From the NCBI RefSeq assembly GCF_021023085.1, contig NZ_PGCK01000001.1, positions 361,851-385,850 on the forward strand: a stretch of 24,000 bases of DNA, in the 5' to 3' direction. The translations under genes were made by a program, and so were the position numbers. The notes under the pieces were generated by a model. That model had not been told where the DNA came from. It made no database searches and was given only the letters and a program-made list of their open reading frames with translations. Numbering within the stretch: position 1 is the first letter of the stretch; each line of letters opens with the position of its first letter. Source of the DNA: Methanooceanicella nereidis (GTDB lineage Archaea > Halobacteriota > Methanocellia > Methanocellales > Methanocellaceae). Shown here piece after piece: positions 16,726 through 18,149 of this stretch.

Positions 16726-17055
16726 TCATTTTTCGCAACAACAGCACGGGGCCTCTTCGGCTTCGCACTCATCGTCATCACAGCCGCATGTGACCTTTTT
16801 GCTTCCGGTCAGCGCGGCCTTGATCATTGCGGAAGCGCATCCGACGCCGCTGTCTACGACTATCGCATCCACGGGACAGTTCAACTGGCACGCTCCGCAC
16901 TCCATGCAGCTATCCGGCGAGACAGGGACAGCTTTTCGCTCGCCCCGGGAGAACACTCCGTGGGGGCAAACGATGCTGCACATCCCGCAATTGATACACA
17001 GCAGCTCATCGAAGTGGAGCGTGTTTATTATTGACAGGGACTCCATTATGACCAC
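16726..17055 (-). CDS. hgcB: HgcB, 2x[4Fe-4S] ferredoxin of the mercury methylation pair
   Basis: There are two CxxCxxCxxxCP motifs (CINCGMCSIVCP and CMECGACQLNCP). CMECGAC and GVGCAS match HgcB-conserved segments. The C-terminus is a Cys cluster (...CGCDDDECEAEEAPCCCCEK). The probable start is the ATG at 17046..17044, which overlaps the hgcA stop as TAATG. Confidence 0.9.
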   Translation of the reverse strand: MVIMESLSIINTLHFDELLCINCGMCSIVCPHGVFSRGERKAVPVSPDSCMECGACQLNCPVDAIVVDSGVGCASAMIKAALTGSKKVTCGCDDDECEAEEAPCCCCEK

Positions 17056-17954
17056 CCCATGAGTTTTACGAATACTAATATTACAACAATTATCACGCTG
17101 ATAGTCACCATTCCTGCCATGACAGGTATGTAAGTGGATATTTCACGTTTTACCCCGGTCCTTGACGTAAATGGCGTAGAGCCTGTGAAATTAAGGGCAA
17201 GATACGAGGTTATCGCGGGCATCGCAAGAAGATATACGAGCACGTAAGCACCTCTTTGCCATAACTGCAGGATCGAGGCGTCGTTTAACGCCAGCCAGCC
17301 GAACGGTATCCATACCAGTAAGCCCAGTATAAGGCCTTTGGTGCTGAAATCCTTTGTAGGAAGCCATGGCAACAAGGCCGGGAACAGTACGACTCCCGCC
17401 AGCATAGCTGATACCAGCGCTCCCGCGAACGTTATGCCTCCTGCAAGATATGCAGCTATTGCGGCTATTATCATCGGCAATAATAAATGATTGACCTCGA
17501 CCGGGACCAGCACCAGCCTGTCAGCAAGGCTGAACCGCACATTGCGCATTTCTTTTGTTGCCTTATGACCCTTCATGTATTCCGGAATGTCCGCGGCGCG
17601 TACAGGGCCGTACTCGACCTGGAACCCGGAGCGCTTCCTGACCTCGAACGCGGCCACGCCCGGAGCCCCCAGCTGTGGTAGTATGAGCTTACGATGGCTC
17701 ACTACGCCGGCAAGTCCCGTCACTCCTATCCTGCGTATCAGCTCTTCCGTGCCGAAAGTGCCTTTTCCTGCGGCGCACCATACGTTGATGCCGCGGGTAT
17801 CTATAACAAGGATATAGCAGCTTATGCCGGAAAGTGACGACCTTAACGCGTCAAAGCTTAAAGTATAATTTGCCGTGACGAACACAGGAGAGCCATTGTC
17901 CGGCTCGCCAAGAGAGTAAAGGCCGGGCTCGACGCGGTGGCCCATGCGGTTCAC
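17046..17954 (-). CDS. hgcA: HgcA, corrinoid protein of the mercury methylation pair (cytosolic corrinoid-binding domain plus C-terminal multi-TM domain)
   Basis: The cap-helix motif NVWCAAGK is encoded at 17786..17763, within TRGINVWCAAGKGTFGTEELIRRI. Flanking HgcA blocks are present (EPGLYSLG, VTANYTLSFDALR, LPQLGAPGVAA, YGPVRAADIPEY), followed by 4-5 hydrophobic helices. Family homology continues upstream of the GTG at 17954 to about 18015, so the true 5' end is unresolved. Confidence 0.9.
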   Translation of the reverse strand: MNRMGHRVEPGLYSLGEPDNGSPVFVTANYTLSFDALRSSLSGISCYILVIDTRGINVWCAAGKGTFGTEELIRRIGVTGLAGVVSHRKLILPQLGAPGVAAFEVRKRSGFQVEYGPVRAADIPEYMKGHKATKEMRNVRFSLADRLVLVPVEVNHLLLPMIIAAIAAYLAGGITFAGALVSAMLAGVVLFPALLPWLPTKDFSTKGLILGLLVWIPFGWLALNDASILQLWQRGAYVLVYLLAMPAITSYLALNFTGSTPFTSRTGVKREISTYIPVMAGMVTISVIIVVILVFVKLMGWS

Positions 17955-18149
17955 GCCCAGCCGCGCTACGACGTGATCCCACCTGTCGGATAAGGTCAGT
18001 TCAGAACTGGTCTTTGCTATGGATATGATCGTTCCCCCATTGGACGTTCTTCTATTATTCCATTTTGTTTAAATAATTGATGTTTTCAACATTCTTATAG
18101 AAAAATTTTAAAGTAAAGGAATACTTTAAGAAAGTCGGAGTAAACGAAA

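Follow-up and report, generated by a model that had tools for sequence, protein, structure and literature searches.

An unfused hgcA-hgcB pair in Methanooceanicella nereidis CWC-04 and the unsettled start of its hgcA gene

The stretch of DNA analyzed here, called the window throughout, comprises 24,000 nucleotides of contig NZ_PGCK01000001.1 from Methanooceanicella nereidis CWC-04, a cultured methanogen isolate that was formerly named Methanocella sp. CWC-04. Methanooceanicella is a genus described as a marine member of the Methanocellaceae. The minus strand of the window carries an unfused hgcA-hgcB pair, and we regard this gene identity as very nearly certain. The pair is already known through its RefSeq names, 'mercury methylation corrinoid protein HgcA' for WP_369423860.1 (327 aa) and 'mercury methylation ferredoxin HgcB' for WP_230740017.1, so it is less novel than was implied by the original prediction, which had been made from the bare sequence. 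A literature search found no paper tying M. nereidis to mercury. The pair is real and ordinary; what the present analysis adds is that the gene model of hgcA is unsettled. The coding features are the following.

17046..18029, minus strand: hgcA coding frame in the RefSeq model, 327 aa, with an ATC start at 18029 and the stop codon TAA at 17048..17046
17544..18017, minus strand: corrinoid-binding domain of HgcA with a Rossmann fold resembling the one in corrinoid iron-sulfur protein (CFeSP); Pfam PF03599 (CdhD), E = 1e-14
17763..17786, minus strand: cap-helix motif NVWCAAGK, with the Cys at residue 60 of the open reading frame (ORF) that begins with GTG, or at residue 88 when counted from 18038
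17058..17507, minus strand: predicted transmembrane domain of HgcA, five helices in the AlphaFold2 model (residues 178-200, 202-225, 231-251, 259-287 and 293-327)
17044..17058, minus strand: hgcA/hgcB junction, with a Shine-Dalgarno-like GGGGTGGT at 17058..17051, a 4-nt spacer and TAATG sharing A17046
16726..17046, minus strand: hgcB, a 106-aa dicluster ferredoxin with ATG at 17046 and stop codon at 16728..16726
16963..16998, minus strand: first [4Fe-4S] motif of HgcB, CINCGMCSIVCP (C17-P28, CxxCxxCxxxCP)
16873..16908, minus strand: second [4Fe-4S] motif of HgcB, CMECGACQLNCP (C47-P58), which contains the diagnostic CMECGA
16837..16839, minus strand: Cys70 of HgcB in SGVGCAS, the counterpart of the strictly conserved Cys73 of Pseudodesulfovibrio mercurii ND132
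16735..16788, minus strand: Cys-rich tail of HgcB, CGCDDDECEAEEAPCCCC, with 7 Cys, four of them consecutive

Both proteins were assigned to their class with the curated equivalog hidden Markov models of NCBIfam and the curated cut-offs of these models, and both scored above the cut-off. The HgcA model (NF040863, HgcA_corrinoid) gave 446 bits against a cut-off of 275 (E = 7e-134); the match begins at window position 18020 and spans positions 1-324 of the 325 in the profile. The HgcB model (NF040864, HgcB_ferredoxin) gave 100.4 bits against a cut-off of 99 (E = 4e-29). Pfam matched the pair only with CdhD (PF03599) and Fer4 families. The motif NVWCAAGK, from which the gene had first been recognized, lies exactly at 17786..17763. 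It fits the general cap-helix pattern N[V/I]WC[A/S][A/G/S]GK, whose conserved Cys is Cys93 in ND132. HgcA conservation was read from an alignment of 84 homologs, and HgcA residue numbers count from window position 18038 unless stated otherwise. In this alignment N85, V86, W87, C88, A89, A90 and G91 are invariant, including the cap-helix Cys column, and all family-invariant residues are kept in the M. nereidis protein. A published high-stringency definition of HgcA asks for one of six cap-helix motifs, NVWCAAGK among them, together with an HgcB that carries C(M/I)ECGA and is encoded on the same contig (PMC10087281). The unfused M. nereidis pair carries NVWCAAGK and CMECGA on the same contig and falls within this definition (PMC10087281).

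The CFeSP-like corrinoid domain that had been proposed for this protein was borne out by Pfam, PDB and Foldseek matches. The CFeSP gamma subunit 2h9a matched HgcA at E = 1.6e-13, with a Thr opposite the cap-helix Cys. Foldseek with the HgcA model gave as best match the deposited HgcA model 9a0b_A (E = 7e-20, 40% identity), followed by the CFeSP structures 2ycl, 2h9a and 4djd. A PDB sequence search returned CFeSP large subunits only and no solved HgcAB structure, and the fold search returned for HgcAB only the deposited computational model 9a0b_A. Our AlphaFold2 model of HgcA, computed with 84 sequences and with helices assigned by DSSP, had a mean predicted local distance difference test score (pLDDT) of 84.8 and a predicted template modeling score (pTM) of 0.73. 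From the N-terminus onward it shows a strand and a helix, then a Rossmann-like domain and, toward the C-terminus, five long helices. Four to five transmembrane helices had been claimed to follow the corrinoid domain; the model predicts five, which is also the published architecture of HgcA.

The ORF that follows hgcA encodes, as had been read from the sequence, a two-cluster ferredoxin with both [4Fe-4S] motifs, GVGCAS and a C-terminal CGC...C...CCCC cluster. Its N-terminus aligns with the Methanocellales HgcB proteins. Cys70 is invariant in the alignment. In each of the 66 HgcB homologs that were parsed for tail and offset counts, this Cys stands at position 11 past the second CP motif; the published offset is about 12 residues. 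The C-terminal tail of an HgcB carries one Cys or more, mostly as a vicinal pair. The 7 Cys in the M. nereidis tail are the maximum among these homologs, and the CCCC run is the only one found among them. In ND132 the C-terminal Cys pair of HgcB is needed for full activity. The TAATG overlap was confirmed at the junction, with the hgcA stop at 17048..17046 and the hgcB ATG at 17046..17044, and this arrangement suggests that translation of the two genes may be coupled. A one-base overlap of hgcA and hgcB also occurs in the ortholog of locus L082, while the M. paludicola genes abut without overlap.

In 17 of the hgcA loci the best HgcB-like ORF fell outside the strict pattern of two CxxCxxCxxxCP motifs (L004, L009, L011, L020, L021, L026, L029, L031, L038, L040, L043, L053, L059, L072, L074, L076 and L080). 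Possible causes are motif variants, contigs that end early and in-frame UGA codons; selenocysteine has been suggested for some homologs.

The GenBank model of the gene (MCD1293771.1, 299 aa) is labeled 'carbon monoxide dehydrogenase', and Pfam sees PF03599 CdhD alone in HgcA. These two facts could be taken to mean that the protein is a non-methylating paralog, either a corrinoid protein of the CFeSP/CdhD type or a fused HgcAB-like protein that has been split. We give this reading a vanishingly small probability and consider it effectively refuted, since the HgcA score stands above its cut-off whereas the paralog models remained under theirs, with 216 bits against 285 for the fused HgcAB-like model NF043039 and 80 against 306 for CFeSP gamma. 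Moreover, the cap helix carries Cys where CFeSP has Thr, the predicted five-helix transmembrane domain is one that CFeSP is without, hgcA and hgcB are two separate genes, and a proven methylator, Methanocella paludicola, has a syntenic locus.

The gene order hgcB-hgcA beside pus10-L21e-rpb4-DUF655, with hgcAB divergent from pus10, recurs in M. paludicola SANAE and three more Methanocellales genomes. As in the window, SRP54 and trmY lie on the far side in 2 of these genomes. M. paludicola SANAE makes methylmercury in culture (Gilmour et al. 2018, PMC5893877). Judged by gene order, the M. nereidis pair is the syntenic ortholog of the M. paludicola pair. The orthology rests on synteny because the HgcA trees resolve no Methanocellales clade. 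A first neighbor-joining tree placed M. nereidis HgcA with those of loci L081, L082 and L084 and that of a Bathyarchaeota metagenome-assembled genome (MAG), and a Methanocellales HgcA clade appeared in 3-6 of 200 bootstraps with Kimura distances. HgcA falls in an archaeal/Chloroflexi cluster with ca. 55-67% mutual identity and 44-49% identity to the Firmicutes and Deltaproteobacteria proteins.

Recent horizontal transfer was considered on two grounds. The G+C fraction over hgcA is 0.57-0.59 against ca. 0.45-0.53 in the flanks, and the closest HgcA matches are from Anaerolineales/Chloroflexia, at 63-67% identity. It was rejected since the pus10-adjacent site is common to four other Methanocellales genomes and M. 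paludicola HgcA is itself 64% identical to that Anaerolineales protein. Including DUF5788 (16191..16685) in the hgcAB unit was rejected as well, as none of the other hgcAB loci examined contains this gene, and an AT-rich, TATA-like box lies ca. 22-29 nt upstream of its ATG.

In L087, a Methanocella MAG collinear with M. paludicola (75-79% nucleotide identity), 141 bp (7130-7270) stand in place of the 1689 bp that hold an abrB-like/hgcA/hgcB cassette in M. paludicola (L081, 5576-7264). Because presence and absence are so clean between these two collinear Methanocella genomes, the comparison suggests that the cassette was gained or lost as a unit. The short contig with the best non-self Pus10 match (75%) has no hgcA next to its pus10.

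The 5' end of hgcA is less straightforward. The ORF at 17046..17954 that had been reported as hgcA is present and encodes 302 aa from GTG; its coordinates are right, but GTG 17954 is wrong as the start of the gene and leaves the protein truncated at the N-terminus. Past the TAA at 18071..18069 the hgcA frame stays open, with 340 codons free of stops and frameshifts. A codon walk from 18068 to 17954 found no in-frame ATG, GTG or TTG upstream of the GTG that begins at 17954. The features of this region are as follows.

18067..18077, minus strand: TATA-like box ATTATTTAAAC, ca. 27-37 nt upstream of ATG 18040 and within the 109 bp between hgcA and pus10
18034..18040, minus strand: ATG 18040..18038 and GGGGG run 18038..18034; the ATG overlaps the run and is one base off the hgcA frame
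18024..18029, minus strand: in-frame near-cognate starts, ATC 18029..18027 (RefSeq, MISIAKT...) and ATA 18026..18024
17955..18023, minus strand: conserved N-terminal HgcA segment SIAKTSSELTLSDRWDHVVARLG, upstream of the first canonical in-frame start; consensus TTSxITxADRWDHFLARWG
17943..17954, minus strand: first canonical in-frame starts, GTG 17954..17952 (302 aa) and ATG 17945..17943 (GenBank, 299 aa)

GTG 17954 is not the true gene start, because conserved and structured residues lie upstream of it and the profile match begins at 18020. In the N-terminal segment of ca. 22 residues, H22 and R26 are invariant and S12, W20, D21, L24, A25 and G28 are conserved in at least 90% of the sequences. 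AlphaFold2 places a strand at residues 8-10 and a helix at 16-26, with block pLDDT values of 91 and 79, and an extra helix near the N-terminus of the HgcA corrinoid domain was described by Cooper et al. (PMC7305189). Furthermore, no Shine-Dalgarno-like motif was found within 10 nt upstream of either GTG 17954 or ATG 17945.

ATC and ATA sit 4 and 7 nt past the GGGGG run. In the Methanocellales orthologs GGGGG or GGGG is followed after 6-7 nt by ATG. Because the orthologs share this G run before their ATG, the Shine-Dalgarno-like element looks as if it was kept in M. nereidis while the start codon changed. Our tentative preference, which we put a little short of an even chance, is that initiation is led by this Shine-Dalgarno-like element and occurs at ATC 18029 or ATA 18026 behind GGGGG. 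Near-cognate initiation there would give a full-length HgcA of 326-327 aa, probably at low efficiency. The G run can be read in either of two ways, as a Shine-Dalgarno-like element for the ATC/ATA start or as a homopolymer that is one G short.

If the run is one base short, the native start would be ATG 18040, and the missing base would reflect either an assembly or sequencing error, with an intact 331-aa hgcA beginning MGGTIISIAK..., or a real one-base deletion that causes a frameshift right after the first codon. As sequenced, the ATG 18040 frame reads MGERSYP*, whereas with six G it reads MGGTIISIAKTSS... and yields 331 aa, equal in length to M. paludicola HgcA. The TATA-like box suggests a promoter here, and AT-rich boxes lie at like distances ahead of panE, tbsP and DUF5788 in the window, so that its spacing to ATG 18040 is one seen at other genes. 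The G+C content also goes up from about this ATG. However, by our own estimate an out-of-frame ATG in ca. 50 nt is expected by chance about half the time, and a conserved Shine-Dalgarno-like element accounts for the G run just as well. None of the other genes of the 24-kb window is frameshifted, which suggests that indel errors are rare in the assembly, and PGAP called no frameshift. An independent assembly or read set was looked for and none was found; in the search for a second copy of the sequence, the 90% identity cluster held two NCBI models from one contig, and the next relative was at 67%. On balance we consider a native start at ATG 18040 unlikely. Programmed -1 frameshifting or transcriptional slippage on the G run was also considered and found hardly credible, since AUG GGG GAA contains no canonical X XXY YYZ heptamer and the shift would fall at codon 2.

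A further difference from the relatives lies directly upstream. A gene for a small protein with an AbrB/PrlF/MazE-like domain (PF04014) stands immediately upstream of hgcA in 4 of 4 Methanocellales orthologs and at roughly 25 of the 84 hgcA loci fetched, and Zhang et al. (2023, PMC10349881) present this gene as a putative archaeal hgcAB regulator. Its positions in the four relatives are given here.

L081, 6908-7192: AbrB-like gene
L082, 6102-6395: AbrB-like gene
L084, 6892-7140: AbrB-like gene
L085, 7388-7666: AbrB-like gene

The putative regulator appears to have been lost from the M. nereidis hgcA locus, where the hgcA region and pus10 are just 109 bp apart; no AbrB-like homolog was found anywhere in the window. 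In the four Methanocellales copies the AbrB-like protein has a vicinal CC close to its N-terminus, and nearly all hgcA-adjacent homologs share an internal VCC/ICC pair. These pairs look like a thiol metal-binding signature and are not mentioned in the passages of PMC10349881 that were consulted.

This loss bears on a second alternative, in which the hgcA start codon is gone and the gene is a very recent pseudogene or gives only an N-truncated product from GTG 17954 or ATG 17945. The ancestral ATG would have changed to ATA or ATC, or would have been removed along with the upstream AbrB-like gene, and the strain would methylate mercury poorly or not at all in spite of its motif-perfect hgcAB. 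The missing canonical in-frame start fits this reading. So do the 109 bp left where the relatives have AbrB-like and vapBC-like genes between hgcA and pus10, the lack of Shine-Dalgarno-like motifs ahead of 17954 and 17945, and the weakness of near-cognate starts. The abrB-hgcA-hgcB cassette is moreover dispensable in the family, as seen from the 141 bp of L087 against the 1689 bp of M. paludicola. On the other hand, the 340-codon frame is intact and every invariant residue is kept, also upstream of 17954, so any inactivation must have been very recent. A truncated product would keep the core corrinoid domain, ca. residues 37-156 of ND132 in Hg-MATE (PMC10087281). The conserved GTPase gene hflX has a similar start-less pattern and is unlikely to be dead too. 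We consider the loss of the hgcA start codon unlikely, to about the same degree as a native start at ATG 18040.

In hflX (2570-3850) the conserved N-terminus precedes the first in-frame canonical start, GTG 3733. Position 14 of the TIGR03156 profile aligns at residue 21, and the GTG corresponds to residue 40. The NCBI model of hflX encodes 419 aa from ATA 3829..3827, which lies 8 nt after AGGAG and 2 nt past the stop codon of DUF2209. A canonical start is thus absent in 2 of the 23 genes of the window, hgcA and hflX, and this parallel speaks for the near-cognate start model of hgcA. That near-cognate AUH initiation is truly used in both, at ATC 18029 or ATA 18026 in hgcA and at ATA 3829 in hflX, seems doubtful.

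Taken as a whole, our explanation of the locus, a genuine hgcAB pair that has lost its AbrB-like regulator, is in our judgment highly probable, whereas the near-cognate hgcA start that completes it stays a little short of an even chance. Several observations weigh against this explanation. All four Methanocellales orthologs start hgcA with ATG, and their AbrB-like gene is missing from the M. nereidis window. The ATG at 18040, out of frame by one, has a TATA-like box ca. 30 nt upstream and fits a one-base indel. Near-cognate AUA and AUC starts have ca. 0.02-3% of AUG activity in E. coli, and archaeal aIF1 destabilizes initiation complexes on non-AUG codons. Because such starts are weak and aIF1 acts in this way, a near-cognate start could equally mean loss of function, and even initiation at ATC or ATA would therefore imply low HgcA expression. 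The HgcB score exceeds the NF040864 cut-off by 1.4 bits only, and the HgcA tree recovers the Methanocellales clade in 3 of 200 bootstraps.

One of the closest known systems is that of M. paludicola, with 57-58% identity in HgcA and 54% in HgcB. In both loci an unfused hgcA precedes hgcB, pus10 is encoded on the other strand, and the genes downstream are pus10-L21e-rpb4-DUF655-rrnaAD; the domain order, the invariant cap helix and the HgcB Cys pattern are shared as well. They differ in that M. paludicola hgcA starts with ATG, whereas M. nereidis hgcA has no canonical start. Furthermore, in M. paludicola a Cys-rich AbrB/PrlF-like gene lies 10 nt before hgcA, and a PIN gene and another MazE-like gene stand between it and pus10; all of these genes are missing from the M. 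nereidis window.

The reference system is the HgcA/HgcB pair of Pseudodesulfovibrio mercurii ND132 (Parks et al. 2013; Cooper et al. 2020, PMC7305189; Zheng et al. 2024, PMC11588087). The M. nereidis proteins resemble the ND132 proteins in having NVWCAAGK with a Co-ligating Cys, a Rossmann-type domain with an extra N-terminal helix and five transmembrane helices in HgcA, and in that HgcB has a pair of CxxCxxCxxxCP motifs, an additional conserved Cys and vicinal Cys at the C-terminus. M. nereidis HgcA is ca. 40% identical to the HgcA model 9a0b_A and, unlike ND132 HgcA, falls in the archaeal/Chloroflexi cluster. The ND132 operon is under an ArsR-like regulator, whereas M. nereidis hgcAB has no adjacent regulator gene, and the HgcB tail has 7 Cys including CCCC in M. 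nereidis against two (Cys94/95) in ND132. The methyl source differs as well, being the Wolfe cycle in methanogens, while S-adenosylmethionine was shown as donor for the ND132 enzyme.

The large subunit of CFeSP (AcsC/CdhE; 2h9a, 2ycl, 4djd) has a homologous corrinoid fold, with E = 1.6e-13 by sequence and 1e-7 by fold. It differs by its Thr in place of the cap-helix Cys, the lack of a transmembrane domain and an N-terminal 4Fe-4S domain; the NCBIfam score is 80 against 306. The fused HgcAB-like proteins of Pyrococcus furiosus and Methanococcoides methylutens, which are non-methylating in culture, share the cap helix, the transmembrane domain and the ferredoxin motifs, but M. nereidis has two ORFs with their own stop and start, and NF043039 scores 216 against 285.

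By analogy with these systems, HgcA would be a membrane-anchored corrinoid protein in which the cap-helix Cys thiolate serves as lower Co ligand, as derived from work on ND132 and methanogens. This ligation would favor passing the Co-bound methyl group to Hg(II), the methyl carbon in methanogens probably coming from the Wolfe cycle. The 2x[4Fe-4S] ferredoxin HgcB would re-reduce the cobalt of HgcA, and its Cys70 together with the flexible Cys tail may hand over Hg(II) and methylmercury. Translation of hgcB would proceed from its own Shine-Dalgarno-like site, with the ATG overlapping the hgcA stop.

The window contains several other features. Positions 10617-12965, ca. 3.7 kb away from hgcAB, encode a P-type heavy-metal ATPase that has a Cys-rich N-terminus and two HMA domains. 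Its gene is syntenic in L082 and L085, each with an ArsR/HTH_5 gene beside it; no ArsR/HTH_5 ORF of at least 50 aa was seen adjoining the ATPase gene of the window. Next to it, a 1-kb ORF-free stretch (9583-10616) holds two 40-bp tandem repeat arrays at 9954-10178 and 10307-10499. These have 5.6 and 4.8 copies with 96-100% matches and are inverted to each other around an AT-rich spacer of ca. 130 bp. Their layout resembles that of origin-recognition boxes or iterons placed about an unwinding element; the window contains no orc1/cdc6 gene, and Rfam gave nothing at the arrays. Rfam and tRNA scans of the whole window likewise found nothing. At 5526-9086 the gene for a PKD-domain surface protein precedes a tandem pair of glycoside hydrolase family 57 paralogs. 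For all three the first possible start is TTG, and their real starts are uncertain.

The presence of hgcAB is used in surveys to predict sites of methylmercury formation, and according to a consensus protocol every unfused hgcA+ isolate tested so far methylated mercury (PMC10087281). It is plausible that the source archaeon is a methylmercury producer, as originally predicted, but the prediction is not secure because hgcA is without a canonical in-frame start. The pair passes all motif and profile criteria, yet it has neither a canonical hgcA start nor the putative archaeal regulator gene. If AUH initiation is truly used, HgcA would be deliberately or tolerably throttled, the two start-less genes among the 23 in the window would hint at unusually frequent non-canonical starts genome-wide, and the rate of methylation would still be poorly predicted by a motif-perfect hgcAB. 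With CWC-04, a cultured isolate, one could check at little cost whether the usual sequence criteria predict too many methylators. If the pair is active, it would extend the cultured archaeal methylators to a marine setting.

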